NCBI GenBank assembly: GCA_021783935.1
Contig: JAJXTK010000001.1
Coordinates: 1 to 39,470, forward strand
DNA: 39,470 bases
Source: Myxococcales bacterium
Lineage (GTDB): Bacteria; Myxococcota_A; Polyangia; Polyangiales; JADJMO01
Reading direction: 5' to 3'
Under the pieces are notes generated by a model that was not told the DNA's origin, ran no database searches, and saw only the letters and a program-made list of their open reading frames with translations. The position numbers and the translations under genes were made by a program. Of this stretch, positions 7,406 to 33,420 are shown in pieces (position 1 is the stretch's first letter; each line of letters opens with the position of its first letter).

Positions 7406-7578
7406 CGGCTCCGTCCGCCCGCGAATATGTCGCGAACGTATCACGTCCAACTGGGGCGGTGCGCGACGCGAAAGTGCCGAGACGGGACCCCGAAAAATGA
7501 TCGTTGACGAGACGGGAGCGGCAAGGGTACAAAGTCGCTCCCTTCGCCGCGGAACCCTGGCCGTGGGGAGGGCAGTCT

Positions 7579-7650: not shown

Positions 7651-7670
7651 CAAAAGCAGACGCGAACAAG

Positions 7671-7703
7671 AAGCCGGTTGGAGCGACGCGCTCCGCCGGC
7701 CTT
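7671..7703 (+). terminator. imperfect GC-rich hairpin downstream of tRNA-Gly (possible terminator or processing hairpin)
   Basis: AAGCCGGTTGGAGCG-ACG-CGCTCCGCCGGCCTT: 15-nt arms with 2 mismatches and no T-tract. Confidence 0.25.
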
Positions 7704-7900
7704 CGCGCGTGACTCACGCTGCGCCGGGCCCAATGGCGCGCGCCAAGGGCGACCGTGGGGGGGGGGTGCCGGGCTCGCATTTCCGGCCAGCTCCGGTCGA
7801 AGTCTGCGACAGGCTCGAGCTGCCCGAGTCGGCTCCGCGTGGTGCGGCGCTCGAGGCTCTTGCGGGCTTCTTGGACCGCGCCGGTCGTTGGAAGGCTCGC

Positions 7901-8028
7901 GCTAGCAGGCCGTTGAGAAACGGCCTGCGGAAACTGTGACCGTCAGCAGGCTGTGGTCGATCGCGCGTGGAGATCGCGGCATGACCCGGGAGAGGATCGG
8001 CCGGTCTCGGAGAAACTCCACAGCCTGC
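7901..8028 (+). repeat. copy 1 of a 127/128-nt structured dispersed repeat (MITE-like or small-RNA-like)
   Basis: Matches 29581-29707 in the same orientation, with one 1-nt indel and one substitution (GCGCGTGGAGATCGCGG versus GCGCG-GGAGCTCGCGG). Contains a 10-bp hairpin with a GAGA tetraloop (GCAGGCCGTT-GAGA-AACGGCCTGC) and long-range complementarity GCAGGCTGTGG/CCACAGCCTGC. Confidence 0.85.
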
Positions 8029-13335: not shown

Positions 13336-13992
13336 TCACTGCACGCCGTGAACCATCGGCACGAAGACCACGTCCGCGAGGAAGTCCTCCTCGACGCCGA
13401 GCGGGGTGCGACGCAGGCGCACGAGCCGCTGGTAGTAGTACGCGCCGATCGGCGCGACCAAGATGCCGCCGGGCGCGAGCTGCTCGACGAGCGCCGCCGG
13501 CACCCGCTGCGGAGCGGCCGTGACGATCACCCGATCGAACGGCGCGCGTTGCGGCCACCCCTGGTAGCCGTCGCCGACGCGCACCTCCACGTTCGCGTAG
13601 CCGAGCCCCGCGAGCCGCCGCGCCGCGGCCGTCCCGAGCTCGGGCACGACCTCCACCGTGAAGACCTGCGAAACGAGGCGCGAGAGGATCGCCGCCTGGT
13701 AGCCCGACCCGGTGCCGATCTCGAGCACGCGATCGGTCGGCCGCAGCTCGAGGGCCTCGGTCATCAGCGCGATCACCGTCGGCTGCGAGATCGTCTGCCC
13801 CGCGCCGATCGGCAAGGGGTGGTCGTGGTAGGCGTCGTCGACCAGGGCGCGCGGGACGAAGAGGTGGCGCGGCACCTCGCGGAAGGCCGCGACGATCGCC
13901 GGCGTGCGCAGCTCGCCGCGCGCGACGAGGTCGTCGACCAGCGCCTCGTGTCTCTGCTCTTCACCGCCCCGATCCAAGCCCGGCGTCTCCAT
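13336..13992 (-). CDS. pcm: protein-L-isoaspartate O-methyltransferase
   Basis: VPRHLFVP, GQTISQPTVIALMTEAL, SAM motif VLEIGTGSGYQAAIL and DRVIVTAA, matching the Pcm family layout. Confidence 0.92.
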   Translation of the reverse strand: METPGLDRGGEEQRHEALVDDLVARGELRTPAIVAAFREVPRHLFVPRALVDDAYHDHPLPIGAGQTISQPTVIALMTEALELRPTDRVLEIGTGSGYQAAILSRLVSQVFTVEVVPELGTAAARRLAGLGYANVEVRVGDGYQGWPQRAPFDRVIVTAAPQRVPAALVEQLAPGGILVAPIGAYYYQRLVRLRRTPLGVEEDFLADVVFVPMVHGVQ

Positions 13993-14022
13993 GCGAGCCC
14001 CTGCGACGGCGCCGCGGCGCCC

Positions 14023-14613
14023 TCAGAAGTGGCCACCGAAGCCGAGGCTGCCGACCACGGCGTCGGTCTTGAACGCGAGCGTCTCGAAGCGGACGAGCGG
14101 CAGCACGCTCAGATCGCGATAGTGGATCAAGAGGCCGCCCGCGATGGAGGCCGACCCTTCGACGTTCGCGCTGGAGCCCGCGCACCCGGAGGTGTCGCCC
14201 AAGCCGCACGAGCCGCCGCCGGTCGGGCGCGTGACGTACGCCACGCCGAGGCCGCCCGACACGAAGGCGAACACCCGCCCCGCGACGCGGACGCGCCCCG
14301 CGAGGGTCGGCTCCGCGAGCACCGCTCCCCTCGCGCGGCTGGAGCTCATCGGATCGCTGCCGACCGACGCGTGCACGCCGATCCCGAGCGCGGGGAGCGC
14401 CCAGTACAGCGCGTCGACGTTCATGCGCGCCGAGGTCCCCTTGGCGTCGCTCGATCCCAGCGCGGCCCCGGCGACCACGTCGCCGCGCTCTAGATCGGGG
14501 GCGCCTCGCGCGCCCGCCTCGCCTCGGGGGCCGACGTCCTCGCCCCGCACGACGCGCGGCGCGGCCGCGAAGAGCACGGCGGTCGCAGCGATGAGTCCCC
14601 ATCGGATCTTCAC
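14023..14613 (-). CDS. secreted protein, probable small outer-membrane beta-barrel
   Basis: GTG 14613 is preceded by AGGAGGA and gives VKIRWGLIAATAVLFAAAPRVVRG (signal peptide). The sequence is Gly/Ala/Ser-rich with alternating pattern and ends in a C-terminal Phe (LGFGGHF). Confidence 0.55.
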   Translation of the reverse strand: MKIRWGLIAATAVLFAAAPRVVRGEDVGPRGEAGARGAPDLERGDVVAGAALGSSDAKGTSARMNVDALYWALPALGIGVHASVGSDPMSSSRARGAVLAEPTLAGRVRVAGRVFAFVSGGLGVAYVTRPTGGGSCGLGDTSGCAGSSANVEGSASIAGGLLIHYRDLSVLPLVRFETLAFKTDAVVGSLGFGGHF

Positions 14614-18784: not shown

Positions 18785-19810
18785 ATGGCTGCGATGAACC
18801 TCGACGAGCTCCGCAAATCGGTGATGTCGGCCGCCCAAGGCGCCATGAGCCTGCAAATCGCCTTCATCGGCGTCGCCAATGGCCTCTTCGATGCTCTCGC
18901 CGCCGCCCCCGCTTCGACGGACGAGCTCGCAGCGCGGGCAGAGATGGACGAGGGCTACGTCCGCCGCTGGTGCGAGGCCGCCTTCGCGTTCGGGATGCTG
19001 CAAGCGCACGGGGCGCGTTTCGAGTTGGCCGATTTGGGGCATGCCTTCCGCCCGTCGACCCCCGGCACCTTGATGCCGTTCGCGGTGCAGGCGGTCCTCG
19101 GCGCGCACATGTCCGATCGGGCGGCCGAGCTCATGAGAACCGGCGAGCGCCCCGGCGAGAGGGTGCTGGCCGAGCGCCCCACGATCCTGCCGTGGTTCGG
19201 GCCGATGCTCGAAGCGACGTTCGGCGGCTTCTTCGAGCGCGAGATCCTGCCGAGCCTCGACGCCTACCGCGAGCTCGAGGCGCGCGGCGGGGTCGCGGTC
19301 GATCTCGGCTGCGGCAACGGCTGGTATCTGCGCAAGCTCGCCGCGCGCTACCCGCACGTGCGGGGCGTCGGGCTCGACGGCTTCGAGGAGAACGTCCGCC
19401 ACGCCCGCGAGCAGGCCGAGCGCGCAGGGCTCTCCGATCGGCTGACCTTCCAGGCCGGCGACATCCACCACTGGACGGTGCGCGAGCCGGCCTCGCTCGT
19501 CGCGATGAACCGCGCGCTGCACCACGTGTGGGAGGAGCGCGCGGACGTGTTCTCGACGCTGCGCGACGCGGTGGTGCCCGGGGGCGCGGTGGTGATCTGG
19601 GAGCCCCGCTGGCCCGACGAGCTCTCGTCGCTGCGCGAGCCGCGCGGGCGTGGGCTCGCGTTCCAGAACCTCAGCGAGCATGTCCAGGGGAACCACTTCC
19701 TGCGCCCGGCCGAGATCGAGGACGCGATGCGCGGCGCGGGGCTCGAGCCGCGCAGCTACCTGTTCGCCGAGGGGGCGGAGGCGGTGGTCGTCGGCACGCG
19801 CCCTCGTTGA
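18785..19810 (+). CDS. class I SAM-dependent methyltransferase with N-terminal winged-helix/dimerisation-like domain
   Basis: Motif I VAVDLGCGNGWYLRKLA, then GVGLDGFEENV, LTFQAGD and VVPGGAVVIWE. The overall layout is O-methyltransferase-like. Confidence 0.85.
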   Translation: MAAMNLDELRKSVMSAAQGAMSLQIAFIGVANGLFDALAAAPASTDELAARAEMDEGYVRRWCEAAFAFGMLQAHGARFELADLGHAFRPSTPGTLMPFAVQAVLGAHMSDRAAELMRTGERPGERVLAERPTILPWFGPMLEATFGGFFEREILPSLDAYRELEARGGVAVDLGCGNGWYLRKLAARYPHVRGVGLDGFEENVRHAREQAERAGLSDRLTFQAGDIHHWTVREPASLVAMNRALHHVWEERADVFSTLRDAVVPGGAVVIWEPRWPDELSSLREPRGRGLAFQNLSEHVQGNHFLRPAEIEDAMRGAGLEPRSYLFAEGAEAVVVGTRPR

Positions 19811-19902
19811 TCTCCTGCTTCACGAGATCGTCGCGCGTCGCGACGATTGCGTACGAAGCAGTCGAGCCGCTGCTCCCCAAGGCCGCGCCGGGACCGATCG
19901 CG

Positions 19903-20754
19903 TCAGTGACCGAGCACCACCGAGAGGGCGGCCTTCGTCGCGCGCGGGACGCGCTTCGGATCGGTCATGACGGCGAACTGGCTCGCGCGCCGGCAGGCGC
20001 ACTCGGGGCGATCTTCGAAGGCCGCGATCGTCTTGGAGAGCAGCGCCGTCACGCGGGCGACGTTCTGCTTCATGACCGCGATGGCCGCGTCGGCGGAGAC
20101 CTCCTCGCGATCGCTCCAGCTGTCGTAGTCGGTGACCATGGAGATCGACGCGTAGCAAAGCCCCGCCTCACGCGCGAGGTAGGCCTCCGGGACGTTGGTC
20201 ATGCCGATCACGGCGTGCCCGGCGGCGTGGTTCATGCGGCTCTCGGCGCGCGTCGAGAACTGGGGCCCCTCCATGCAGACGTAGGTGCCGCCGCGGTGGA
20301 GCCGCAGGCGCAGCGCCTTGGCGGCCTCGGCGACGTCGCCCGCGAGCGCGCCGCAGATCGGCTCGGCGAGCGCGACGTGGCCGACGCAGCCGTCGCCGAA
20401 GAAGGTGCTCGCGCGCACCCCCTTGGTGCGGTCGACGTACTGATCGACGAGCACGAAGTCCCCCGGCCGAAGGCGCGCCTGCAGGCTGCCGACCGCGCTC
20501 ACCGACAGGAGGCTCCGAGCGCCGAGCTTCTTCAGCGCCCACACGTTCGCGCGGTAGTTGATCTCGCTCGGCAAGAGCCGGTGTCCGACCCCGTGCCTCG
20601 GCAGGAAGTAGACCGTGCGCCCGTGCAGCTCCCCTTCGACGATCGCGTCGCTCGGGGGGCCGAACGGCGTCGCGATCCGGCGCGCGCGGCGCACGCGGAC
20701 CCCCTCGATCTGCGAGAGGCCGCTCCCACCGATGACGGCCAAGGCGTCGTGCAT
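19903..20754 (-). CDS. mtnP: S-methyl-5'-thioadenosine phosphorylase (MTAP)
   Basis: AVIGGSGL, FLPRHGVGHRLLPSEINYRANVWALKKLG, YVCMEGPQFSTRAES and VIGMTNVPEAYLAREAGLCYASISMVTDYDSW match the MTAP/PNP family. Confidence 0.9.
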   Translation of the reverse strand: MHDALAVIGGSGLSQIEGVRVRRARRIATPFGPPSDAIVEGELHGRTVYFLPRHGVGHRLLPSEINYRANVWALKKLGARSLLSVSAVGSLQARLRPGDFVLVDQYVDRTKGVRASTFFGDGCVGHVALAEPICGALAGDVAEAAKALRLRLHRGGTYVCMEGPQFSTRAESRMNHAAGHAVIGMTNVPEAYLAREAGLCYASISMVTDYDSWSDREEVSADAAIAVMKQNVARVTALLSKTIAAFEDRPECACRRASQFAVMTDPKRVPRATKAALSVVLGH

Positions 20755-20885
20755 GAAGCTGCCTCCGAAGGTCGAGCCGGCCGGGCCGGGCCCGGGTTGG
20801 AGCCGACAATGTGCGCAAAGGTGTCGCCCGCGCGTAGCGCGGCCGAGCGCCGCGAATCATTTCCCGACGCCGAGGCTCTCGCAAG

Positions 20886-22475
20886 GTGATGCCCTCCCCG
20901 TCAACCACGCCGCCGGCGCCCGCCAGGCGCTCCCGCCCGGGCGCGCTCGCGCGCACCAAGGAGCGCGTCGGCCAGTGGCTGATCGACCTCGAGTATCGCC
21001 TGCGCAACGCGCGACCGTTCGCCCACGGCCGCGGCAGCGCGCGCGTGTTCTACCCGGGCTGCTCGCTGCCCGCGGCCGACCCGGAGCTGGTCCTGCGGGC
21101 CTACGAGTGGCTCAAGGCGCGCGACCCGGAGATCGAGCTCTGGTCCGACTGCTGCGGCATGCCGCTCGAGAAGTTCTCGTCGAAGGAGGCGGCGGAGCGT
21201 GGGCGCGCGCAGACCCGCGAGAAGCTGCGCCGCGCGGGCACGACCGAGATCATCACCGCCTGCGGCAACTGCACGGTGCAGTTCCAGTCGCTGAAGGTCC
21301 CGGGGCTCCAGCTCACCTCGCTCTACGGGCTGCTCGCCGAAGAGGACTGGGGCGAGCGCCCGAACGCCGCGCCGAGCGTCGTCCATCACCCGTGCTCGGC
21401 GCGCATCGACAAGGGGCTCCAGGTCGACTTCAAGCGCTTCGCCGATCGGCTCCACCTGAACGTCGTCAACATCGACGATCCGAAGCACCCGCTCTCGTGC
21501 TGCCTCGTGAAGTCCCCGGCCGCGCTCGCCAAGCGCGAGGCGCTCGCCGACAGCCAGCTCGTCACCTACTGCGCGCACTGCACCATGTCCTTCCAGAAGG
21601 ACATCCCGACGCGCCACGTCCTGCAGGAGGTGTTCGGCAAACCCGAGGAGCGCTGGCAGCCCAAGGGGCCGCTCGCGCGCTTCGCCGCCTATCGACGATT
21701 CTCGCAGCTCGCGACCCGCGCCGGCGAGAAGGCCCGAGCGTCCGCGCCCCCGAGCGACGCGCCGTCGGACGGCCGGCTGTCGTGGGGCGCGCGCCTCGCG
21801 ATCGCGGCGCTCGTCGCGGCGGTGCTCGTGATGGTCGCGCGCCACGGCGCGCTCTCGCAGCGCGCGCTGCAGCTCATCGCCTACAGCCGCGACGCGGGGC
21901 CGCTCGGCATCGTCGCGTACGCGCTCGCGTACGTCGTCGCGACCGTGCTGCTCTTGCCCGGCTCGGCGCTCACGCTCGGCGCCGGCTTCGCGTGGGGCCC
22001 GTTCGTCGGGGTCGCGATCGTCTCGCCGGTGAGCGTCGTCGCCGCGACGGCCGCCTTCGCGCTCGGGCGCACGCTCTTGCGCGCGCGCGTCGAGCGCCAC
22101 CTCTCCAAGCACCCGAAGCTCGCCGCGCTCGATCGCGCCGTCGGCGATCACGGTCTGCGGCTCGTGCTGCTGCTGCGCCTGTCTCCCATCGTGCCGTTCA
22201 ACGCGCTCAACTACGCGCTCGCGGCCACGCGCGTGCGGCTCTTCGATTACGTCGTCGGCTCGGCGATCGGGATGCTCCCTGGCACCGTGCTCTACGTCTA
22301 TCTCGGCAGCCTGGTCACCAGCGGCACCGAGCTGCTCGCGGGTCGACCGATGCACTCCGCGGCCGCGACGGCGCTCTACTGGGGCGGCCTGGTCGCGACG
22401 CTGCTGGTCGTCGTGCTGACCACGCGCCTCGCGCGCGCCGAGCTCGACAAGCTCCTCGGACAGGAGGCCCCATGA
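20886..22475 (+). CDS. fusion protein: two HdrB/GlpC-type CCG cysteine-rich domains plus C-terminal TVP38/TMEM64 (DedA-like) membrane domain
   Basis: CCG domain 1: FYPGCSL...DCCGMPL...ACGNCTVQF. CCG-like domain 2: HHPCSAR...LSCCLVK...YCAHCTMSF. The C-terminal half is polytopic, with LLLPGSALTLGAGFAWG...LLLRLSPIVPFNALNYALA, typical of TVP38/SNARE-associated proteins. Starts at GTG 20886 or ATG 20889. Confidence 0.8.
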   Translation: MMPSPSTTPPAPARRSRPGALARTKERVGQWLIDLEYRLRNARPFAHGRGSARVFYPGCSLPAADPELVLRAYEWLKARDPEIELWSDCCGMPLEKFSSKEAAERGRAQTREKLRRAGTTEIITACGNCTVQFQSLKVPGLQLTSLYGLLAEEDWGERPNAAPSVVHHPCSARIDKGLQVDFKRFADRLHLNVVNIDDPKHPLSCCLVKSPAALAKREALADSQLVTYCAHCTMSFQKDIPTRHVLQEVFGKPEERWQPKGPLARFAAYRRFSQLATRAGEKARASAPPSDAPSDGRLSWGARLAIAALVAAVLVMVARHGALSQRALQLIAYSRDAGPLGIVAYALAYVVATVLLLPGSALTLGAGFAWGPFVGVAIVSPVSVVAATAAFALGRTLLRARVERHLSKHPKLAALDRAVGDHGLRLVLLLRLSPIVPFNALNYALAATRVRLFDYVVGSAIGMLPGTVLYVYLGSLVTSGTELLAGRPMHSAAATALYWGGLVATLLVVVLTTRLARAELDKLLGQEAP

Positions 22476-23122
22476 ACGCGCCGATCCCCGTCTGCGTCTT
22501 CGCGAAGCCACCGATCGCCGGCGCCAAGACGCGCTTGTCACGCAAGTACGGCGCGTCGGCCGCCGCGCGCCTCGCCCGCGCCTTCTTCGCAGACGTGTTC
22601 GCGACGGTGCGCGCCCTCCCCTGGGCGCGGCCGATCCTCGCGACCACCACGCGCGACGCGGGCGCCTTCGAGCTCGAAGAGCCGCCCGAGATCTGGCTGC
22701 AGGGCGAGGGCGACCTCGGCGACCGCATGGAGCGCGTGCTCGCCCGCGGCGTCGCCGACGCGGGGCGCGCGATCGTCATCGGAGCCGATCTGCCGGGTCT
22801 TCCGAGCGCGCACCTCGACTCCGCGCGCGAGGCGCTCGCGACGCGCGAGGCGGTGCTCGGGCCCACCGTCGACGGCGGCTTCTACCTGATCGGCCTCTCG
22901 CGCGTGCCGAGCGGCGCGCTCGCCCACCTGCCCTGGAGCCACTACGACACGCTCGCCAAGACGGCCGCGCGGCTCGCCGAGCTCGGCCTCGACGCGGCGC
23001 GCGCGCCGATCTGGTTCGACGTCGATGAGCCGGACGATCTGCCGCGCGTGCGGCGCGTGCTCGAGCGAAACCCCGAGCGGGCGCCGCACACGATGGAGGC
23101 GCTCCTCGCGATGGGCGCCTGA
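22472..23122 (+). CDS. DUF2064 / CofC-like nucleotidyltransferase-fold transferase (the 'rSAM/selenodomain-associated transferase 1', TIGR04282-like)
   Basis: VCVFAKPPIAGAKTRLSRKYG (family signature K-P-x-x-G-x-x-KTRL), IGADLPGLP and GPTVDGGFYLIGLS. Its ATG overlaps the upstream stop as ATGA (22472-22475). Confidence 0.8.
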   Translation: MNAPIPVCVFAKPPIAGAKTRLSRKYGASAAARLARAFFADVFATVRALPWARPILATTTRDAGAFELEEPPEIWLQGEGDLGDRMERVLARGVADAGRAIVIGADLPGLPSAHLDSAREALATREAVLGPTVDGGFYLIGLSRVPSGALAHLPWSHYDTLAKTAARLAELGLDAARAPIWFDVDEPDDLPRVRRVLERNPERAPHTMEALLAMGA

Positions 23123-23802
23123 TGCGCACGTCGATCGTGGTCCCGGTCCTCGACGAGGAGCGGGTGATCGACGCGCGGCTCGCCGAGCTCGAGGCCCTCG
23201 GCGCGCACGAGGTCCTGGTGGCCGACGGCGGGAGCCGCGACGGCACGCTCGCGATCGTGGCACGCCACCCCGGCGTGCGCCTGGTGCACGCGCCGCGCGG
23301 GCGCGCCCTGCAGATGAACGCGGCCGCGCGCGAGGCCACCGGCGAGGCGCTGCTGTTCGCCCACGCCGACGTCGCGCTGCCGGCCGACGCCCTCGAGCAC
23401 GTCGCGCGCGCGCTCGACGACCCGCGCGTCGCGCTGGGGGCCTTTCGCACTTGGACCGTCGCCGATCGACCGACGCGCCTCGGCCCGCTCTTGCACCTCG
23501 CCGATCTGCGATCGCGCCTGAGCTCGCTCCCGTACGGCGATCAGGCGATGTTCATGCGCACCGAGGTCTTCCGGGAGGTCGGCGGCTTCCCGCCCATCGA
23601 GCTCATGGAGGACCTCGCGCTCAGCCGTTCCCTGCGGGCGCGCGGGCGCGTGCGCGTGGTGCCCGCGCGCGTTCGGGTCTCCGGGCGCCGGTTCATCGAG
23701 CGGCCGTTGCTCTACACCGCGATCGTCAACATTTACCCGTTGCTCTACCGGCTCGGCGTGCCGCCGGCGCTGCTCGCCCGCTTCTACCGGGCGGTGCGCT
23801 GA
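23122..23802 (+). CDS. GT2-family transferase (MftF-like; the 'rSAM/selenodomain-associated transferase 2', TIGR04283-like)
   Basis: SIVVPVLDEE, VADGGSRDGT, GRALQMNAAAREATGEALLFAHADVALP, PYGDQAMFMRTEVFREVGGFPPIELMEDLALSRSLR and VSGRRF. Its start overlaps the upstream stop as TGATG. Confidence 0.8.
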   Translation: MRTSIVVPVLDEERVIDARLAELEALGAHEVLVADGGSRDGTLAIVARHPGVRLVHAPRGRALQMNAAAREATGEALLFAHADVALPADALEHVARALDDPRVALGAFRTWTVADRPTRLGPLLHLADLRSRLSSLPYGDQAMFMRTEVFREVGGFPPIELMEDLALSRSLRARGRVRVVPARVRVSGRRFIERPLLYTAIVNIYPLLYRLGVPPALLARFYRAVR

Positions 23803-23855
23803 ACTTTCGCCGGGCAGGGGCAAATCCTTTCGCCGCGCTGCGGCTCGAAGGGCCC

Positions 23856-24086
23856 ATGGCGATCTCGAACTGGCTCGCGACGGTCCCGTGGAACGTCGTC
23901 TTGATGGCGTGCCTGACGCTGGGCCTCGCACCGTTCACGCCCCCGCACATCGTCGAGAAGCTCGGCATGCTCTTCCAGGGCAAGCTGGTGAAGCCCATCG
24001 ATTGGTTCGATCTCTTCCTGCACGGCGCGCCCTGGGTGCTACTGATCGCCAAGGGCATCTTCACCATGGTGGCACGTCCCGCGTGA
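23856..24086 (+). CDS. small (76 aa) two-TM membrane protein
   Basis: MAISNWLATVPWNVVLMACLTLGLAPFTPPHIVEKLGMLFQGKLVKPIDWFDLFLHGAPWVLLIAKGIFTMVARPA. Its stop overlaps the next gene's GTG start (GTGA at 24083-24086). Confidence 0.6.
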   Translation: MAISNWLATVPWNVVLMACLTLGLAPFTPPHIVEKLGMLFQGKLVKPIDWFDLFLHGAPWVLLIAKGIFTMVARPA

Positions 24087-26566
24087 GCCAAGCGTCCCTC
24101 GGTTTCTCGGCCGAGACGGTGCTCCACACCCCGGCGCTGACGCGCTGGAGCACCGATGACGGGGTCTTCCTCGCGCTCGACGCCGAGGCGCCCAACTGGA
24201 TCGCCACCGACGAGCGGGGCGCACAGGTGCTCGCGCTCCTCGACGGTCGGCGCACGCTCGGCGAGGTCGCCACCCGCGCGCGGCTCTACCCCGACCTCGC
24301 CAAGGGCCTGCAGCACGTGATGTCGTTCGCGCAGGCGCTCCTGCGGGCCGGGATCGCCGCGCGCGCGCCGTTCGTCCGCCCGGCCTACGGCGGGCGCGCC
24401 GAGCGGCTCGGCGAGTGGTCGCTGCGGGAGATGTGGCTGCACACGAACGACGCGTGCAACCTCTCGTGCGAGCACTGCCTGGTCTCGTCGGGGCCCAAGG
24501 GCTCGCGCGGCCTGCCGAGCGAGACGCTCCTCGACGCCGTCGATCAGGCCGCCGCGCTCGGCGTCGAGACCTTCTTCTTCACCGGCGGCGAGCCGTTCTT
24601 GCGCCCCGACCTCGCCGCGCTCGTCGCGCGCGTCACCGCGCACCACGAGCGTCCGCTCGTCATCCTCACCAACGCGACGCTCTTCGACAAGCCGGCCTAC
24701 CGCGAGCTGCTCGCGCCCTTCGATCGCAAGAAGGTGCGCTTCCAGGTCTCGCTCGACGGCACCTGCCCCGAGGAGAACGACCCGATTCGCGGCGCCGGCA
24801 CCTTCGAGAAGGCCTCGGCGGGGCTCGCCCTGCTCGCCTCGCTCGGCTTCGAGACGTCGCTCACGCTCGTCCCCCACCGCAAGAACCTCGCGAGCCTCGC
24901 GGCGCTGCCGGCGATCGCCGAGCGGCTCGGCGCCGCGTCGGTCCACCTGATGTGGCCGCACCGGCGCGGGCGCGCGCTCTCGATGCTCGAGGAGCTGCCG
25001 TCGGTCGAGGAGCTCGTCACGGCGACGCGGGCGGTGCGCGACGCCGCGGAGGCGATCGGCGTTCGCCTCGACAACGTCGAGAGCCTCTTGCAGCGCGTGA
25101 ACGCGGTGCCCGACGTGAAGCATGATCTCGGCATGGCCGGCGTCGAGGCGCTCTGCCTGCACGCAGACGGCGTGCTCTACCCGTCGGCGGCGACGGCGGG
25201 GATCGAGGCGCTCGCGATCGGCAAGCTCGGCCAGCGCGGGCTGCTCGAGGTCTGGCGCGGCTCGGCGGTGGCCAACGAGCTGCGCGCGACGAGCCTCGCC
25301 AAGAGCCCCGCGCTGCTCGGCGATCCGCTGCGCTTCGTCACCGGCGGCGGCGACCTCGAGCACGCCTACTTCTGGAGCGGCTCGTTCCTCGGCGGCGATC
25401 CGTACGCGCCCCTCTACGCCGCGCTCGCGCGCGACCTGATGGCCGATCTCGGGCGCAAGGGGCGCGCGCGCGCCACGCGGCGCCCGGCAGGCGACGCGCC
25501 GATCATCTTCCACGCGATGGGCGAAGGGGCGCTCGCCTGCGGCGACGAGCTGCCCGGCGCGGTGCGCACGCTCCACTCCAACTGCGTGCTCGCCTTCGAC
25601 GTCGACCGCCCGCGCGCGCTGATGCGCGCCTTCTACGGCGCCGCGGCCGTCGCGCCGAAGCCGACCTTGTGCTGCCCGGTGCGCCCGCCCGAGGAGGACC
25701 TGCAGCACGTCCCGAAGGACGTCGTCGATCGCTTCTACGGCTGCGGATCGCCGGTGCAGGACGCCGCCCTCGCGCGCGGCGAGACGCACCTCGATCTCGG
25801 CTCCGGGGCGGGCATCGACGTCTTCGTCGCGGCCAAGCACGTCGGCCCCGAGGGGCGCGCCATCGGCGTCGACATGACCGACCCGATGCTCGCGGTCGCG
25901 CGCGAGAACCAGCCGATCGTCGCGCAGAACCTCGGCTACGACGTGGTCACCTTCCGCAAGGGGCTGCTCGAGGCGGTGCCGCTCGGCGACGGCGAGGTCG
26001 ACTGCGTGACCTCCAACTGCGTGGTCAACCTCTCGCCCGACAAGCGCGCGGTCTTCGCCGAGATCTGGCGGGTCTTGAAGGACCACGGGCGGCTCGTGCT
26101 CGCGGACATCGTCGCCGAGCGCGTCGTGCCGCCGCACCTGCGCGTGAACCCGGAGCTCTGGGGCGAGTGCCTCTCGGGCGCGCTCACCGAGGACGAGCTG
26201 CTCGCCGAGCTCGAACGCGCGGGGTTCTGCGGCGTCGAGATCCTCAAGCGCACCTACTGGCGCGAGGTGCAGGGGCACACCTTCTTCTCCGTCACCGTGC
26301 GCGCCTTCAAGCACGAGGAGCGCCGCCGCACCTTCACCGGCCAGCTCGCCGTCTACCTCGGGCCGCACAAGAGCGTGACCGACGAGGAGGGGACGCTGTA
26401 TCGGCGCAACGAGCCGGTCGAGGTCTCGACCGACGTCGCGGCGCGCCTGCTCCGCGCGCCGTACGCGGGCTCGTTCCGCGTCCAAGAGCCCTCCGGCGAG
26501 TCGACGCTCGCGCCCGCCTCGAGCGCGCCGAAGCCCCTCGACGCCGGCGGCCGCTGCTGCTCCTGA
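24083..26566 (+). CDS. four-domain fusion: PqqD/RRE-like + radical SAM + Cys-depleted SPASM-like + ArsM-type As(III) SAM methyltransferase
   Basis: N-terminus: WIATDERGAQVLALLDGRRTLGEVATRA...VMSFAQALLRAGI (PqqD-like). Radical SAM: NDACNLSCEHC (CxxxCxxC), FFFTGGEPFLRPD, FQVSLDG, IRGAGTF. SPASM scaffold with ligands lost: LCLHADGVLYPS...IGKLGQ...FVTGGGDLEHAYF. ArsM domain: LCCPV, FYGCGSPV, HLDLGSGAGIDVF, AIGVDMTDPML, TSNCVVNLSPDK, LWGECLSGA. C-terminal GGRCCS. Confidence 0.85.
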   Translation: MSQASLGFSAETVLHTPALTRWSTDDGVFLALDAEAPNWIATDERGAQVLALLDGRRTLGEVATRARLYPDLAKGLQHVMSFAQALLRAGIAARAPFVRPAYGGRAERLGEWSLREMWLHTNDACNLSCEHCLVSSGPKGSRGLPSETLLDAVDQAAALGVETFFFTGGEPFLRPDLAALVARVTAHHERPLVILTNATLFDKPAYRELLAPFDRKKVRFQVSLDGTCPEENDPIRGAGTFEKASAGLALLASLGFETSLTLVPHRKNLASLAALPAIAERLGAASVHLMWPHRRGRALSMLEELPSVEELVTATRAVRDAAEAIGVRLDNVESLLQRVNAVPDVKHDLGMAGVEALCLHADGVLYPSAATAGIEALAIGKLGQRGLLEVWRGSAVANELRATSLAKSPALLGDPLRFVTGGGDLEHAYFWSGSFLGGDPYAPLYAALARDLMADLGRKGRARATRRPAGDAPIIFHAMGEGALACGDELPGAVRTLHSNCVLAFDVDRPRALMRAFYGAAAVAPKPTLCCPVRPPEEDLQHVPKDVVDRFYGCGSPVQDAALARGETHLDLGSGAGIDVFVAAKHVGPEGRAIGVDMTDPMLAVARENQPIVAQNLGYDVVTFRKGLLEAVPLGDGEVDCVTSNCVVNLSPDKRAVFAEIWRVLKDHGRLVLADIVAERVVPPHLRVNPELWGECLSGALTEDELLAELERAGFCGVEILKRTYWREVQGHTFFSVTVRAFKHEERRRTFTGQLAVYLGPHKSVTDEEGTLYRRNEPVEVSTDVAARLLRAPYAGSFRVQEPSGESTLAPASSAPKPLDAGGRCCS

Positions 26567-26640
26567 GCGAGACCACGATCGGTCGCGACCGCCGCGAAGC
26601 TCCGTCGCGATGGTCGGCGTCCAGCGCACATCTGCAGTGC

Positions 26641-27015
26641 ATGGACACACTCGACCGCCTGCCCGTCCCGGTGGTCGCGCCCGTCCTCGTGCGCGCGGTC
26701 GACGGACTGCCGCTCGGGGATCCGGAGCGATCCCTGCTCGCCTACTTCGACGGCCTGCACACGATCGACGAGATCGCCAGCGAGAGCGGGAGCTCCGCGC
26801 TGCAGGTGCGCGCGCTCGTCTCGGATCTCGTCTGGTTCGGCGCCGTCGCGCTCGAGGAGGTGATGCAGGTCGCCGAAGGCGAGCTCTTCGCGAACGAGCC
26901 GGAACAGCTCACGCCAGGCTGCGAGATCGCGGCGCGGGCGCCGGCGCGCCCCTCGGCGACCGACGCGTCGATCGAGGCGGCGCTGCGCACGCTCCTCGAC
27001 AAGTACGACGCGTGA
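26641..27015 (+). CDS. hypothetical protein (124 aa)
   Basis: ATG 26641: MDTLDRLPVPVVAPVLVRAVDGLPLGDPERSLLAYFDGLHTIDEIASESGSSALQVRALVSDLVWFGAVALEE.... Plausible composition and GC3. It lies 74 nt downstream of the fusion gene. The family is not recognised. Confidence 0.5.
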   Translation: MDTLDRLPVPVVAPVLVRAVDGLPLGDPERSLLAYFDGLHTIDEIASESGSSALQVRALVSDLVWFGAVALEEVMQVAEGELFANEPEQLTPGCEIAARAPARPSATDASIEAALRTLLDKYDA

Positions 27016-27057
27016 GCAGGCCAGGCGCGCGAGCGCCTCGACGCCACGCCGAGCGTC

Positions 27058-28149
27058 TCAGCTGCCGCAGCGCGCCCCGCGCACCTCGCCGAGCGCGCGG
27101 GCGATCGCGACCGAGTCCTGCTCGCCGACCAGGCGATCGACCTCGCCGCCCGCCGCGTCGACCGACACGAAGGTCGGCACCACGCGCACGCCGTAGCGCG
27201 AGGCGAGGCCGGCGCCGTTCGGATCGTCGACGCGCACGCGCAGGACGCTCTCGGCAGCGTCGCACGAGCGGGCGACCCGCTCGAGCACCGGGGCCATGCG
27301 GGCGCAGACGACGCAGTGGTCGCTCACGAACTCGACCAGGCGCGGCTTGCCCGTGATCGCCTCCGCGCTCGGCGCGCCGAGCGTGGGGATCGCCGCGGCG
27401 CACGCCGACGCGGAGGCCGAGGTCGCGCAGTCGCTGGTCGCGACGGCCGCGGGCGCCGCTGCCTTGGGGGTGAGCGCGGCGAGGCGATCGGTGGCGAGCA
27501 GCACGCCGACCGCCACGAGCACGCCGCCGGTCACTCGCTGCAAGCGCGCGCCGGCGCTGGCGAAGCGCCGGACGATCGGCACGATCCTCGAGGCGGCGAA
27601 GGCAGCCGCGACGAGCGGCGTCGCGAGCCCCGCGGCGTAGGCGGCGAGCTGCGCGCCCGCGATCCACGGGCTCGCGCTGGTGCTCGCGGCGTACGTCAGC
27701 GCCGCGCCGAGCACCGGCCCCACGCACGGCGTCCAGCCGACCGCGAAGGCCGCGCCGAACAATAGGCCGCCGAAGAAGCCGCCCGGCGTGGGGATGCGCT
27801 CGAGCAGCGGGCGTCGCTCCGCATGCAGACCGGGGAGCTTGATGACGTCGAGCAGCTGGACGCCGAAGAGGATCATCACGCCGCCGGCGACCCACCCGAA
27901 CGCCCGCCGGTGCGCGAGCAGCGGCGCGGCCAAGAGCGACGCGAAGACGCCGAGCACGATGAAGACCGCCGCGAGCCCTATCGCGAAGCCGAGCCCCGCT
28001 CGACGTAGGCGACCTGGCCGCGCGACGCCGTCGGTCGCCGCCGCGCCGCCGAGCAGCGCGACGTAGACGGGCAGCAACGGCAACACGCACGGCGAAGCGA
28101 AGGTGAGAAGCCCCGCGCCGTACAGAGCGAGGGCGCCACCGATGGACAT
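27058..28149 (-). CDS. CcdA/DsbD-type thiol:disulfide transfer membrane protein fused to a C-terminal thioredoxin-like domain
   Basis: LTFASPCVLPLLPVYVALLGG and WTPCVGPVLGAAL (the two CcdA cysteines). C-terminal EFVSDHCVVCARMAPVLE (CxxC). GAGGAGGAG RBS before ATG 28149. Confidence 0.85.
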   Translation of the reverse strand: MSIGGALALYGAGLLTFASPCVLPLLPVYVALLGGAAATDGVARPGRLRRAGLGFAIGLAAVFIVLGVFASLLAAPLLAHRRAFGWVAGGVMILFGVQLLDVIKLPGLHAERRPLLERIPTPGGFFGGLLFGAAFAVGWTPCVGPVLGAALTYAASTSASPWIAGAQLAAYAAGLATPLVAAAFAASRIVPIVRRFASAGARLQRVTGGVLVAVGVLLATDRLAALTPKAAAPAAVATSDCATSASASACAAAIPTLGAPSAEAITGKPRLVEFVSDHCVVCARMAPVLERVARSCDAAESVLRVRVDDPNGAGLASRYGVRVVPTFVSVDAAGGEVDRLVGEQDSVAIARALGEVRGARCGS

Positions 28150-28167: not shown

Positions 28168-28599
28168 TCAGTCGAGCGCGACGTCGACGTCGACCGAGAT
28201 GCCGGCCCGGACCGACTGCGTCACGATGCAGAACTCCTCGAAGCTCGGGATGCAGGCCTGCACGGCCGCGCCGTCGGCGCCCGGCGCGTGGACCGTGACG
28301 TGGATCTTTCCGATTCGCAGGCGCTTGTGCTCGTTGCGCACGATCTCGACCTCGACGTCCGATCGCACGCCGGTGAGCGCGGCCCCCTTCTTCTTCGCGC
28401 AGAACACGAGGCTCGCAGCGAGGCAGTTGCCGACCGCCGCCGCGAGCACGCGCGCCGCGTTCGGGGCGGCGTCGCGGCCGAGGGGCGCCGGCTCGTCGAG
28501 CGTGATCGCCGCGTGCTGCGGCTTGTCGAAGCGCACGCGGAACTCGTACTGGTCGAGCTGCTCGACGGCGATTGCGAACTTCTGCACGACCTCGCTCAT
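28168..28599 (-). CDS. OsmC/Ohr family peroxiredoxin-like protein
   Basis: ATG 28599 (MSEVVQKF...) with a GGGAGAA RBS. AAAVGNCLAASLVFC and FEEFCIVTQSV are the two OsmC-family cysteines. Confidence 0.85.
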   Translation of the reverse strand: MSEVVQKFAIAVEQLDQYEFRVRFDKPQHAAITLDEPAPLGRDAAPNAARVLAAAVGNCLAASLVFCAKKKGAALTGVRSDVEVEIVRNEHKRLRIGKIHVTVHAPGADGAAVQACIPSFEEFCIVTQSVRAGISVDVDVALD

Positions 28600-28802
28600 G
28601 GGTGGGTTCTCCCTTCGTACTCTGTGTCCGAGCCACGCACGGCCTTGCGGGGTTCGCCCGGCGCGTCGAACGAGAGTACGCGGCGTGGCCGCCATGGGCT
28701 TCGCGGCGCGGCTCGGGGCCCCGACCCGAACCCTTCGGCGATCTCGCAGGCTCCCAGCGCGCGAGGTCTCCGCCGCGAGGGAAGAGCTGCGATGTCACAC
28801 AC

Positions 28803-29957: not shown

Positions 29958-30344
29958 ATGCCGACCCTGCCGATCACCGAAGCCTCCTTCGCCGAAGCCG
30001 TGAAGGCGCCCGGCGTCCTGCTGATCGACTGGTGGGCCCCGTGGTGCGCGCCTTGCCGTATGTTCGCGCCGATCTACGAAAAGGTTTCGGCGCGCCACCC
30101 CGACGTGCGCTTCGCGAAGGTCGACACCGAGTCGCAGCCGCGCCTCGCGTCGATCTTCCAGATCCGATCGATCCCGACGCTCATGGTGGTCAAAGACGGC
30201 CGCGTCGTCTTCTCCGAGGCGGGCATGATGCAGGAGCGCCCGCTCGAGGGGCTCGTGAAGTGGGCAAAGGAGCTCGACCTCTCCAAGCTCACCGCCGGCC
30301 AGCTCCCCCAACGGCCGCGCCCGCCGACGCCCCTCGATCGATAG
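29958..30344 (+). CDS. thioredoxin
   Basis: LIDWWAPWCAPCRMFAPIYEKV (WCxPC) and IRSIPTLMVVKDG. AGGAG RBS 8 nt before ATG 29958. The upstream part of track ORF 29751..30344 is not coding-like. Confidence 0.9.
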   Translation: MPTLPITEASFAEAVKAPGVLLIDWWAPWCAPCRMFAPIYEKVSARHPDVRFAKVDTESQPRLASIFQIRSIPTLMVVKDGRVVFSEAGMMQERPLEGLVKWAKELDLSKLTAGQLPQRPRPPTPLDR

Positions 30345-30418: not shown

Positions 30419-30666
30419 TCGCGGCCTCGTCCTCCCCAGCGCTCCGCGACGCGGCGCGCTCGAACCCTTCCTCGCGCGAGCGGCTCCCACTCCACGAGCG
30501 GGCGCGCTCCACGCCGTACGTCGTCGCTGGTCCCCCGGTCTTCGGCGTTTCGTGATCCTCCCCTCCGGGCGCGCCCGCTCACCTAGCTTCGTCACCGGCG
30601 ACGCTCACCGCCGCCGAGCGCCCCGACGCGCGCCGCACGCGCGCTCTCACCCTCTTCGGAGGTCTC

Positions 30667-31686
30667 ATGCTCGCCCGCATCGAGAAGGCGACCGCCTTCG
30701 TCAGCACCCACCTGACCAAGTTCATCCTCGCGGTCATGGTCCTCGGGCTCCTCAACGCCTACTTCCTGGGCGGGATCCCGTTCAACCTCGCAATCTGCGC
30801 GACCGCGTCGTTCCTGATGATTTACCCGATGTTCATCAACCTGAAGATCGGGGACATCGTCGAGGGGAAGAACCACAAGGCGGCGCTGCTGCTGAGCCTC
30901 GTGCTCAACTTCGCGCTCTCGCCGGCGCTCGCGTGGGGGCTCGGCAAGCTGTTCCTCGCGGACCAGCCCTACATGGCCTTGGGCCTCGTGCTGATCTCAC
31001 TGATCCCGACGAGCGGCATGACGGCGACCTGGACCGAGCGCTCCAAGGGCAACCTCAAGGTCGCGCTCTCGATCATCGCCGTGAGCCTGCTGGTGGTGAT
31101 CCTCGCGCTGCCGCTCGTGCTCCCGCGCATGGCGGGCAACCTGATGAGCGCGGGGCCGTTCTTCATCTTCCAGCGGATCCTGATGGTCATCGTGATCCCG
31201 CTGGTGCTCGGCGACGTCACGCGCCGGATCATCGTCGCGAAGAAGGGGCAGCCCTACTACAAGTCGAAGAAGCCGCTGTTCTCGGGCCTCAGCAGCACCG
31301 GCCTGTTGTTCGTGCTCTTCCTGATCATGTCGCTGAGCGCCAACAAGCTGCTGGTCACCAACGCCGCGCTCGTCGTCAAGGGGGTCGTCCCGCTGCTCAT
31401 CTACTACGTGGTCATGTTCGGCACGAGCACGCTGCTCTCGCGGGGCTTCGGCCACGGCGTCTCGACGGCGATCGTCTACGGCACCTCGGTGCGCTACCTC
31501 GCCCTCGCGCTCGGAATCGCGGTCCCGCTGCTCGGCAGCGGCAAAGAGAGCAGCCTCGTGGTCTTCGTCGTCGCGCTCGCGTTCTTCATCCAGGTGCCGG
31601 CGGCGTCGCTCTACGCGAAGTGGGTCACGCGGCGCGCGCCTGCCCCCACGACGCCTCCCGCCCAAGCGGCGACGGGCACCGCGTAG
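30667..31686 (+). CDS. ACR3/BASS-superfamily permease (ACR3-like, lacking the ACR3 cysteine)
   Basis: Ten-TM-like hydrophobic profile. MIYPMFINLKIGD and LISLIPTSGMTATWTERSKGN resemble the ACR3 segments (mYPmm.kv; PC[TI]AMV.vW..la.Gd), but with T-S-G in place of C-T-A. GGAGG RBS 5 nt before the ATG. Confidence 0.75.
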   Translation: MLARIEKATAFVSTHLTKFILAVMVLGLLNAYFLGGIPFNLAICATASFLMIYPMFINLKIGDIVEGKNHKAALLLSLVLNFALSPALAWGLGKLFLADQPYMALGLVLISLIPTSGMTATWTERSKGNLKVALSIIAVSLLVVILALPLVLPRMAGNLMSAGPFFIFQRILMVIVIPLVLGDVTRRIIVAKKGQPYYKSKKPLFSGLSSTGLLFVLFLIMSLSANKLLVTNAALVVKGVVPLLIYYVVMFGTSTLLSRGFGHGVSTAIVYGTSVRYLALALGIAVPLLGSGKESSLVVFVVALAFFIQVPAASLYAKWVTRRAPAPTTPPAQAATGTA

Positions 31687-32034: not shown

Positions 32035-32238
32035 GCGTCATTGATGCTCCTTGAAGGCCGCACGCGCAAGCCTCTATTGCCGCGGCAGCTTGCCGATCGG
32101 CGCCCCGTCGGTCGGCCCGCCGGAGGGGGCGTCGCCACCGGCGTGGGGCCCCGCCGGGGCGACGCGCCGGAGGCGAGCCGAATTGATGGGCCTCGGCCTT
32201 GAGGCGCGCCCCCCACGCGCCAAACTCGACGCCGACGC

Positions 32239-33420
32239 GTGCAGAACGAGCCCGACCGACGCCCGAGCATCACGAGCGGCGCCATCTTCCGCCTCGCCCT
32301 GTACTACGGCATCGCGGGGTTCGGCGGCGGCTACTCGGTGCTGGCGCAGCTGCGCCACGAGCTCGTCGAGCAGCGGCGATGGATCGAGGCCGAGGAGTTC
32401 CTCGTCCTGGCCGAGCTCTCGAAGAGCCTCCCCGGCACCCCCGCGACGAGCCTGCTCGCGCTCTTGGGGCAGCGCGTCGGCGGCGTACGCGGCGGAGTCG
32501 TCGCCGCGACCGCGTTCCTGCTGCCGAGCATGGCGCTGATGACCGCCGCGGGGGCGGCCTACTCGCTCATGCGCGGCGCGAACGCCCTCGCGTCGTTCTT
32601 CGACGGCATGAACGCGGCCATGGTGGGCGTGGTCGCCGCGACGACGGTGGACCTCGGGCGCACCGCCCTGCGCGGCCGCTGGGACGTGGTCGCCGCGATC
32701 GGCGCGGCCCTCGCGCTCGCCACGCGGGTCACGAGCGAGCCGCTGCTCGCCGCCGGCGCGATCGGCGTGGGGGTGGCCATGGGCGCGCGCCGCGCTCCCC
32801 CGCGCTCGCAGGTGCCCGACCAGGAGGGGGCGGGCAACGGACTGCACGCGATCGCCTTGCTGCCGCTGCTTGTGGGCGCCGGCGCCGGGGCGCTCGCGGG
32901 GCTGGTGCGCGTCTTCGTGCCGATCGGCATCGCGACGTTCGGCGGCGGGCTCGCCATGGTCCCGGCGATCGAGCACACCGTCGTCGTCGAGGAGCACTGG
33001 CTCGGACCCAAGACCTTCGCCGACGCCGTCGCGCTCGGGCAGATCACCCCCGGGCCCATCGCGATCTGCGCCACGTTCATCGGCTACCGCGTCGGCGGGC
33101 TGCTCGGGGCGCTCATCGCCACGATCGCGATGTTCGGCCCCGCGATCGCGCTGGCCCTCGTCGTCGGCCACTCGATCGAGCGCTTCCGCAGCAGCCCACT
33201 CGTGCAGGGGGCGCTGCGCGCGCTCGCCCCGGCGGTGATCGGCATGCTCGCGGCCGCCACCTGGAGCCTCGGCCGCGCGGGGATCGCGGGGTGGTTCGAC
33301 GCGGGCGTCGGGCTCGTGGCCTTCGGCGTCCTCGCCCGATCGAAGGTCAGCCCGCTCTGGCTGCTGGTCGGCGGCGGGCTCGCGCGCGTGGCGCTCTCGC
33401 TGATCGGGCACCACGGCTGA
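32239..33420 (+). CDS. chrA: chromate ion transporter (CHR family, two-domain ChrA)
   Basis: Two CHR repeats: GIAGFGGGYSVLAQLRHELVEQRRWI...LPGTPAT and IATFGGGLAMVPAIEHTVVVEEHWL...LGQITPGPI. GTG start at 32239. Confidence 0.9.
   Translation: MQNEPDRRPSITSGAIFRLALYYGIAGFGGGYSVLAQLRHELVEQRRWIEAEEFLVLAELSKSLPGTPATSLLALLGQRVGGVRGGVVAATAFLLPSMALMTAAGAAYSLMRGANALASFFDGMNAAMVGVVAATTVDLGRTALRGRWDVVAAIGAALALATRVTSEPLLAAGAIGVGVAMGARRAPPRSQVPDQEGAGNGLHAIALLPLLVGAGAGALAGLVRVFVPIGIATFGGGLAMVPAIEHTVVVEEHWLGPKTFADAVALGQITPGPIAICATFIGYRVGGLLGALIATIAMFGPAIALALVVGHSIERFRSSPLVQGALRALAPAVIGMLAAATWSLGRAGIAGWFDAGVGLVAFGVLARSKVSPLWLLVGGGLARVALSLIGHHG

Follow-up and report, generated by a model that had tools for sequence, protein, structure and literature searches.

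In a 39,470-nucleotide stretch of a Myxococcales contig (positions 1 to 39,470 of JAJXTK010000001.1, assembly GCA_021783935.1; hereafter the window), we studied an operon of five genes, g1 to g5, whose last gene encodes an 827-aa protein joining a radical SAM (S-adenosylmethionine) domain to an ArsM-type arsenite methyltransferase. On balance, we favor reading this operon as a lineage-specific variant of the widespread arsenosugar-type organoarsenical cluster in which the single protein encoded by g5 replaces ArsM and the radical SAM enzyme ArsS, and the operon probably yields complex organic arsenic compounds by an alternative route. Curated families and the searchable literature describe neither the fusion enzyme, nor its replacement of ArsS, nor the accompanying variant that joins a CCG to a VTT domain; for the individual parts and the parent system, annotations exist. 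A literature search covering the g5 fusion, the TIGR accessions, and the downstream arsenosugar steps returned no description of such a system and no paper on the fusion, in agreement with an earlier interpretation made from the letters alone (the sequence-only reading), which had held that the combination is not a described pathway.

Results

A Conserved Five-Gene Operon

The operon consists of five plus-strand open reading frames (ORFs) at 20886–26566: g1 (20886–22475; 529 aa, starting at GTG 20886 or ATG 20889), g2 (22472–23122; 216 aa), g3 (23122–23802; 226 aa), g4 (23856–24086; 76 aa), and g5 (24083–26566; 827 aa). Their third-position GC of 0.90–0.94 is as expected for a genome of 73% GC, the value found in the window, and we therefore take all five as real genes. 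Neighboring genes overlap at ATGA (22472–22475, g1/g2), TGATG (23120–23124, g2/g3), and GTGA (24083–24086, g4/g5), and the only gap in the operon is the 53 nt between g3 and g4 (23803–23855). The sequence-only reading had listed the three overlaps and the gap in a series of five same-strand genes, together with the motifs KTRL and DGGFYLIG in g2 and GRALQMN, YGDQAMF, and MEDL in g3; all of these were found again in the sequence and its translations. The gene order of the window is repeated in the relatives L090, L091, and L003 at protein identities of 67–77%, and the association of g2, g3, a VTT membrane protein, and g5 is kept across phyla, so the arrangement is not by chance. A scan of 19800–27200 for promoter and terminator consensus sequences gave no match, the scan being uninformative at 73% GC, and an Rfam search of the whole window found no riboswitch, its sole match being a tRNA.

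Anatomy of the Fusion Protein

None of the NCBIfam models matched g5 at cutoff. In the AlphaFold model of the protein (mean pLDDT 82.7), a beta3-alpha3 domain stands at the N terminus; a TIM-type core, a SPASM-like region, and a methyltransferase of Rossmann fold follow, and the tail is disordered. Conservation was assessed in an alignment (A1) of 18 full-length homologues with 51–78% identity to g5 and a mean column identity of 64%. Residues 1–100 (24083–24382, plus strand like all parts of the gene) are predicted to form an RRE, a PqqD-like winged helix modeled as three strands followed by three helices at a pLDDT of ~90; PF05402 was scored by the homologues P0090, P0111, P0274, and P0260, and not by g5 itself at E < 0.01. 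The radical SAM core follows at residues 113–300 (24419–24982), with a PF04055 match of 78.7 bits over residues 123–265 and with the motifs C125-x3-C129-x2-C132 and GGEP (G168-G169-E170-P171), invariant in the 18 homologues. Residues 301–513 (24983–25621) resemble SPASM enzymes in fold according to Foldseek and lack the cluster cysteines. PF13186 (SPASM) found no match in g5, the conserved cysteines of residues 270–520 are C358, C486, and C501 only, and of the seven-cysteine SPASM motif a single cysteine is left, the hairpin reading C358-x4-G-x4-S; the auxiliary-cluster ligands are therefore gone.

Over residues 1 to ~470, the model shares its overall fold with RRE-containing radical SAM/SPASM maturases of ribosomally synthesized and post-translationally modified peptides (RiPPs), such as CteB, SuiB, TigE, MftC, and PqqE. 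The Foldseek alignments with CteB, TigE, and SuiB span ~470 columns, with target-normalized TM-scores of 0.6–0.72 for this part. Unlike these maturases, g5 has no seven-cysteine SPASM motif and no evident precursor peptide, and it is fused to a metalloid methyltransferase. The best maturase models in NCBIfam were StsB (98 bits) and MftC (96 bits), with the Rv1681 radical SAM family scoring higher (120 bits), all far below their cutoffs.

The C-terminal third is of the arsenic methyltransferase type. Residues 514–800 (25622–26482; domain match at residues 537–727) form a class I SAM fold with a DLGSGxG motif, homologous to the solved ArsM/AS3MT enzymes: phmmer matched structures 5evj (E 8e-38), 4fr0 (E 1e-35), and 8xt7 in a range of 1e-35 to 1e-38, and the best 13 Foldseek matches of the g5 model were all ArsM/AS3MT structures at 31–35% identity. 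In CmArsM, As(III) is bound by C44, C72, C174, and C224. In g5, C554 (YGCG), C646 (SNCV), and C696 (GEC) fall on As(III)-binding cysteines in the alignment with solved ArsM enzymes, C530/C531 occupy the N-terminal position, and all of these are invariant in the 18 homologues. The protein closes with a disordered tail (residues 811–827, 26513–26563; pLDDT < 50) that ends in an invariant Cys-Cys, C825 and C826 being present in all 18 homologues and the terminal pair also in the more distant P0274 and P0267.

Fusion Loci Share the Accessory Genes of ArsS Clusters

For comparison, genuine ArsS clusters were fetched starting from g3 homologues, with a TIGR04167 score of at least 300 bits as the criterion for ArsS; in clusters of the L086 and L087 type, ArsS scored 440 bits (cutoff 300). 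The gene order in L086 is ArsM, ArsS, PHO4, VTT, flavin adenine dinucleotide (FAD) disulfide reductase, TIGR04282, and TIGR04283, and that in L087 is low-molecular-weight phosphatase, PHO4, ArsM, DUF547, ArsS, methylthioadenosine (MTA) phosphorylase, VTT, reductase, TIGR04282, and TIGR04283. Fusion systems have the same PHO4-type transporter, VTT/DedA protein, disulfide reductase, TIGR04282 and TIGR04283 proteins, and occasionally MTA phosphorylase (MTAP), in matching gene order, as well as an ArsM with all As-binding cysteines and a radical SAM domain with CX3CX2C. In both cluster types, the reductase belongs to NCBIfam subfamily NF004991 (786 and 781 bits, cutoff 620).

Among 81 loci with a fusion match in tblastn searches, a set that includes the window and a few duplicate contigs, PHO4 was a neighbor in 35, VTT in 30, and PyrRedox, DUF2064, and GT2 (family-2 glycosyltransferase) in 25 each. 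By profile, PHO4 was found at 29 fusion loci, on the same strand in 28 of them, and the median gap was 7 bp. Where a fusion locus had 5 kb or more on each side (36 loci), one or more of the five accessory genes were present in 29 cases. No ArsS was found in the flanks of the fusion loci (~80 loci), and when 80 metagenome loci were taken with the glycosyltransferase as anchor, ArsS was present in 12, the fusion in 1, and both in none. One locus returned as a fusion relative, L085, turned out to be an ArsM + ArsS locus. Single-linkage clustering of six-frame locus ORFs was confounded by antisense ORFs at high GC and served as a pointer only, while iterated local profiles drifted for PyrRedox and PHO4 and merged GT2 with DUF2064 owing to fused genes; the profile counts were therefore filtered by score and non-overlap, and the tblastn counts were relied on.

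The genomic association typical of ArsS, with ArsM, TIGR04282, and TIGR04283, is thus present for g5. As the fusion loci carry the same accessory genes and no ArsS stands beside the fusion, the fusion takes the place of ArsM and ArsS, and its gene context assigns it to the functional slot of that pair. This agrees with most of what the sequence-only reading had proposed. Its division of g5 into PqqD-like, radical SAM, degenerate SPASM, and ArsM parts is borne out by profiles, alignment, the AlphaFold model, and Foldseek. Its view that the operon retains ArsM chemistry and the accessory transferases accords with TIGR04282 and TIGR04283 scores above the curated cutoffs and with the resemblance of the C terminus of the g5 model to ArsM structures. 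Its proposal that ArsS has given way to a radical SAM of PqqE/maturase type joined to ArsM fits the likeness of the N-terminal ~470 residues to CteB, TigE, and SuiB and the accessory set common to both cluster types. The five-gene unit, in turn, is found in its exact form in Myxococcota only; the unit conserved between phyla is the fusion together with TIGR04282, TIGR04283, VTT, reductase, and PHO4.

Two further features of the loci were observed. DUF547 genes are a repeated finding in clusters of both the ArsS and the fusion type (17 loci, e.g., L087 at 2866–3624, L063, L040, and L034), and in Thermoanaerobaculia the fusion–PHO4 pair of L001/L002 (1–9000) lies beside MerT, MerC, HMA, a CsoR-like repressor, and a MerA-like reductase.

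The Accessory Transferases

The two transferase genes are assigned above curated thresholds. The g2 product (22472–23122, plus) is a TIGR04282/DUF2064 protein of the CofC-like nucleotidyltransferase fold, matching TIGR04282 over its full length (150.3 bits, cutoff 134; positions 1–189 of 189) and PF09837 at 92 bits, with 3cgx as a relative in the PDB. The g3 product (23122–23802, plus) is a TIGR04283 family-2 glycosyltransferase, MftF-like (200.1 bits, cutoff 182; positions 2–221 of 221; PF00535 67.8 bits), and is also weakly similar to polyprenyl-phosphate glycosyltransferases in NCBIfam. Its homologues bear the source names “rSAM/selenodomain-associated transferase 2” or “arsenosugar biosynthesis glycosyltransferase.” In L029 (10813–12096), TIGR04283 (217 bits) and TIGR04282 (194 bits) are found together in one 428-aa protein, a gene fusion that links g3 and g2 functionally.

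Spread of the Family and Other Architectures

More than 100 full-length g5 homologues (~810–850 aa) were among the matches listed, their only source name being “methyltransferase domain-containing protein,” and the closest named relatives of the window fusion among these matches come from a “Deltaproteobacteria bacterium” and an Archangium metagenome-assembled genome (MAG). The family occurs in at least 10 phyla, in all cases in MAGs (GTDB species representatives): Acidobacteriota (Thermoanaerobaculia and Vicinamibacterales), Gemmatimonadota, Elusimicrobiota, Nitrospirota, Nitrospinota, Planctomycetota (including anammox bacteria), Omnitrophota, Chloroflexota, Spirochaetia, Thermodesulfobacteriota, and one archaeal bin.

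A profile-free search with the N-terminal 520 residues of g5 revealed a wider set of architectures. P0274 has the order PqqD–radical SAM–intact SPASM–ArsM, P0303 the reverse domain order ArsM–radical SAM–SPASM, and P0267 is a stand-alone RRE–radical SAM–SPASM protein that likewise has Cys-Cys at its end; these three distant relatives retain an intact SPASM domain. P0253, P0262, P0264, and P0278 are triple fusions of radical SAM, ArsM, and DUF5714, ~1000–1080 aa long. The existence of both domain orders indicates that the radical SAM–ArsM fusion arose more than once, and fusion in more than one arrangement points to a shared pathway for this radical SAM clade and ArsM. In the Archangium locus L003, DUF5714 is encoded on its own downstream of the fusion (13365–14108), by a gene whose product has a partial match to the model for the “metal-binding double selenoprotein MbdU” (141 bits vs. 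a cutoff of 600).

The Myxococcota Variant: g1 and g4

In the Myxococcota set (the window, L090, L091, L003, and L088), the FAD reductase is absent and an HdrB-like CCG domain precedes VTT; PHO4 is missing from the operon in the window and its Myxococcota relatives. The g1 product (20886–22475, plus) has an HdrB-like double CCG region (residues ~35–260) fused to a VTT/TVP38/DedA membrane domain (residues ~300–529), as indicated by PF02754 (26.0 bits, cutoff 20.6), PF09335 (86.6 bits, cutoff 33.9), and a partial match to NF045663 (105 bits). Ten cysteines, C59/C89/C90/C126/C129 and C170/C205/C206/C229/C232, form two complete HdrB-type repeats of the pattern C-X29/34-CC-X35/22-CxxC and are invariant in four homologues, and the hydrophobic segments within residues 297–515 give the multi-pass membrane topology of a VTT protein. 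A PDB sequence search with g1 found nothing. CCG and VTT form one fused protein in the window, L090, and L088 and are two separate genes in Archangium L003, where a YgfK-like Fe-S flavoprotein lies upstream. Like CCG proteins of the HdrB/GlpC/LldE type and DedA/TVP38 proteins, g1 has two full-cysteine CCG repeats and a VTT domain, respectively, but their fusion inside an arsenic cluster is an arrangement not described before; no HdrA/HdrC-like partner was found within the window. The sequence-only reading had regarded an Fe-S/disulfide-reductase-like membrane protein as an addition to the pathway. This does not hold, as VTT and a disulfide reductase are standard in ArsS clusters and the Myxococcota swap the FAD reductase for CCG-VTT.

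The product of g4 (23856–24086, plus; 76 aa) is a conserved membrane protein with two hydrophobic segments predicted to form two helices. It had no family match in Pfam or NCBIfam, and its identity of 71–77% in L090, L091, L003, and L088 supports it as a real gene. A weaker homologue (54% match) follows the glycosyltransferase gene in the ArsS-type locus L154. On the 1-Mb Myxococcota contig L088 (7343–10022), CCG-VTT, a TIGR04283-like GT2, and a g4 homologue occur with neither TIGR04282 nor the fusion adjacent, and the module can therefore be split.

Flanking Genes

Divergently adjacent to the operon is a gene for MTAP (19903–20754, minus; TIGR01694 296.3 bits, cutoff 274.85), which is probably part of the pathway. 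It has the same divergent position in L090 (5746–6600) and L091 (6818–7666), stands in the operon or adjacent to it in the ArsS-type loci L087 (5058–5951) and L147 (5542–6393), and lies beside the glycosyltransferase in L110 (3280–4110). This recurrence by the TIGR04282/TIGR04283 set in both cluster types suggests that the enzyme may cleave an adenosyl-arsenical intermediate. Possibly also associated is the 341-aa O-methyltransferase-type enzyme encoded at 18785–19810 (plus; PF00891, PF08100, and class I methyltransferase domains), found beside MTAP again in L090 (4668–5690; 74% identity) and not seen in the other loci. As 2-O-methylated arsenoribosides occur in algae (PMC10456119), a link of this gene to such compounds is conceivable by analogy.

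Downstream of the operon lie genes for a DsbD/CcdA-thioredoxin fusion (27058–28149, minus), OsmC (28168–28695, minus), and a thioredoxin (29958–30344, plus); thioredoxin-like and DsbD-like genes were found near the fusion in other phyla at 20 and 9 loci, respectively. Directly 3′ of g5, an ORF of 104–124 aa without a family (26701–27015, plus) is a gene call on the identical Logan contig L089; L090 does not have it. An SBF-family transporter (30556–31686, plus) was discarded as a candidate ACR3 arsenite pump, being only weakly ACR3-like (88.8 bits vs. 282.8). The window further contains a chromate transporter (32203–33420, plus; PF02417), an archaeal-type S-adenosylmethionine synthetase on this bacterial, Myxococcota-like contig (36250–37500, minus; PF01941; NF003366 456 bits, cutoff 435), and a tRNA-Gly (GCC) at 7579–7651 (plus). 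The tRNA overlaps a long minus-strand ORF (6080–7942), which must therefore be shorter than listed.

Discussion

Together, ArsM, ArsS, and ArsL exploit all three C–S bonds of SAM for arsenic chemistry (10.1101/2024.02.01.577332), ArsS adenosylating trivalent dimethylarsenic, DMAs(III), to 5′-deoxy-5′-dimethylarsinoyl-adenosine (DDMAA) (PMC13598754; 10.1101/2024.02.01.577332). Compared with the ArsM + ArsS cluster, g5 has neither DUF3641 nor a selenocysteine domain, carries an RRE–radical SAM–SPASM-like part fused upstream of ArsM, and ends in the invariant Cys-Cys, while the window has the HdrB-like CCG-VTT protein in place of the FAD reductase, no PHO4 in the operon, and an extra 76-aa membrane protein. 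With the ArsL + ArsM pathway of arsinothricin, the window system shares the pairing of ArsM with a radical SAM enzyme, which in that pathway forms a C–As bond, but it lacks the ArsQ permease, its accessory genes are of the ArsS type, and g5 scores only 184 bits on NF040538, “arsinothricin biosynthesis methyltransferase ArsM,” far under the cutoff of 500. ArsL is a noncanonical enzyme transferring the 3-amino-3-carboxypropyl group, of a lineage different from the g5 radical SAM domain (10.1101/2024.02.01.577332).

From the sequence features, fold predictions, and gene context, a route through the operon can be proposed, in which the ArsM step rests on conserved sequence features. The ArsM domain would bind As(III) on its four conserved cysteines and methylate it with SAM to methylated As(III) species. 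The radical SAM domain would then cleave a second SAM on the [4Fe-4S] cluster of the CX3CX2C motif to form a further C–As bond, in the simplest case by the ArsS reaction, 5′-deoxyadenosyl addition to DMAs(III) giving 5′-deoxy-5′-dimethylarsinoyl-adenosine. The C-terminal Cys-Cys tail, the cysteines C358/C486/C501 of the SPASM remnant, or both may ferry the trivalent arsenical between the active sites. The adjacent MTA phosphorylase could remove adenine to leave arsenoribose-1-phosphate, which the TIGR04282 and TIGR04283 proteins would turn into a glycoside, the acceptor possibly being a polyol or lipid. The HdrB-like CCG domain may supply thiol/disulfide reducing power for arsenic or enzyme thiols, as the FAD disulfide reductase would elsewhere, and the VTT/DedA domain and the 76-aa protein may have a membrane role, translocating the product or a lipid-linked intermediate.

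Several observations weigh against assigning the operon to this kind of pathway. The g5 radical SAM domain is, by its sequence, not an ArsS orthologue: it reaches 73.1 bits against TIGR04167 (cutoff 300), over model positions 6–151 only, its similarity to ArsS in BLAST (27–30% identity) is limited to a core of ~140–160 residues ending at ArsS residue ~181–193, and DUF3641 (PF12345) found no match in g5. The equivalence of its chemistry to that of ArsS is therefore inferred from genomic position only. The ArsM part falls below the NCBIfam cutoffs (NF008823 223.9 vs. 263 bits; NF040538 184 vs. 500; NF038099, the arsenosugar ArsM, 145.6 vs. 400), as do, on the same models, the ArsM proteins of the true ArsS clusters L086 (199/345/128) and L087 (200/172/113). 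Seven of the 36 well-flanked fusion loci are without any accessory gene nearby, no arsenate reductase or ArsR was seen in the window, and MTAP is also a housekeeping enzyme, its adjacency perhaps reflecting the salvage of a SAM by-product. Finally, a small-molecule pathway leaves the RRE domain unexplained.

The radical SAM domain might instead make a bond that ArsS does not, giving a new class of organoarsenicals other than 5-dimethylarsinoyl-ribosides, with arsenic on a lipid, isoprenoid, or amino-acid-derived carbon, or an ArsL-like 3-amino-3-carboxypropyl transfer. Membership of the domain in the RRE–SPASM maturase lineage rather than that of ArsS is in keeping with this, as are the lipid-type genes at some loci (a FA_hydroxylase/OlsE-like gene in L003 and L005), the weak resemblance of the GT2 to polyprenyl-phosphate glycosyltransferases, and the membrane nature of DedA/VTT proteins. 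We consider it unlikely, however: the accessory set is that of ArsS clusters, including the nucleoside-cleaving MTAP, which is simplest to understand if the product is an adenosyl or ribosyl arsenical, and the canonical GGEP and CX3CX2C motifs suit ordinary formation of the 5′-deoxyadenosyl radical. Much less probable still is a RiPP-like peptide pathway in which the RRE recruits a precursor or small protein, e.g., that of g4, for modification by the radical SAM domain and methylation or addition of a metalloid by the ArsM-like domain. The N-terminal RRE fold, the closeness of that part to the RiPP maturases CteB, TigE, and SuiB, and the small conserved g4 immediately upstream of g5 with its GTGA overlap would fit such a role, but g4 encodes a two-helix membrane protein found in few lineages only, and fusion loci of other phyla have no room for a small ORF or no conserved one (the neighbors in L001 are DUF3179 and PHO4). 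The auxiliary-cluster cysteines typical of SPASM peptide maturases are lost, protease, transporter, and leader-processing genes are not present, and the neighbors are those of the small-molecule ArsS pathway.

ArsM alone gives arsenic resistance in many organisms, and the operon could thus serve detoxification only, with ArsM methylating or volatilizing arsenic and the radical SAM domain and neighboring genes acting in redox maintenance or unrelated envelope glycosylation. The thiol-redox genes around the operon (DsbD-thioredoxin, OsmC, and thioredoxin) and the mercury-resistance genes amid which some Thermoanaerobaculia loci lie are consistent with this, but the fusion of radical SAM and ArsM more than once and in both domain orders, the persistence of the TIGR04282/TIGR04283 linkage across phyla, and the tight coupling to a PHO4-type oxyanion transporter, which suggests uptake and not extrusion, make it improbable. 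It is also hard to credit that the substrate is another element, be it Se, Te, Sb, or an S or P oxyanion imported by the PiT-family transporter. ArsM enzymes can methylate Sb, Se, and Te, the PHO4 neighbors score the PitA and CysP sulfate permease models equally weakly, the CCG region of g1 resembles a family named for its proximity to selenocysteine genes, and neighbors in L003 resemble YgfK and MbdU, which have selenium-associated names. Against this, the As(III)-binding cysteines are all in place and do not vary, the closest curated models of the g5 methyltransferase are all arsenite methyltransferases, and ArsS, the enzyme of the sister clusters, has been demonstrated by experiment to act on arsenic (PMC13598754). 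The peptide, detoxification, and other-element explanations are all made less likely by the accessory set common to both cluster types and by the unvarying As-binding cysteines. Of the products that the sequence-only reading had offered, an organoarsenical remains favored, and an organoselenium compound or a modified peptide is disfavored by the four invariant As(III)-binding cysteines, the lost SPASM cysteines, and the lack of an evident conserved precursor gene.

A bolder reading is that the fusion is a self-contained “arsenic assembly line,” which would methylate As(III), pass the thiol-bound intermediate on its Cys-Cys tail, perhaps docked by the RRE, and form a C–As bond that ArsS does not make. 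Its product would be a new class of membrane-associated organoarsenicals, made in soils and sediments by uncultured bacteria from at least 10 phyla. We regard this as speculative, unlikely though not remote.

In the literature searched, non-methyl C–As bonds are formed by two enzyme types, ArsS and ArsL. The fusion would add a third type, either a solution evolved independently of these two or one separately recruited to the ArsS reaction, and, being already coupled to a methyltransferase, it offers a compact target for enzymology. The search returned no experimental work on the steps of arsenosugar synthesis after C–As bond formation, and the comparison of clusters defines a testable accessory pathway for them, consisting of MTAP, TIGR04282, TIGR04283, VTT, and the reductase. 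The fusion family is common in soil and groundwater MAGs, among them Thermoanaerobaculia, Vicinamibacterales, Gemmatimonadota, Nitrospirota, Elusimicrobiota, Planctomycetota, and Myxococcota, and it could account for the unexplained complex organoarsenicals of soils and sediments.

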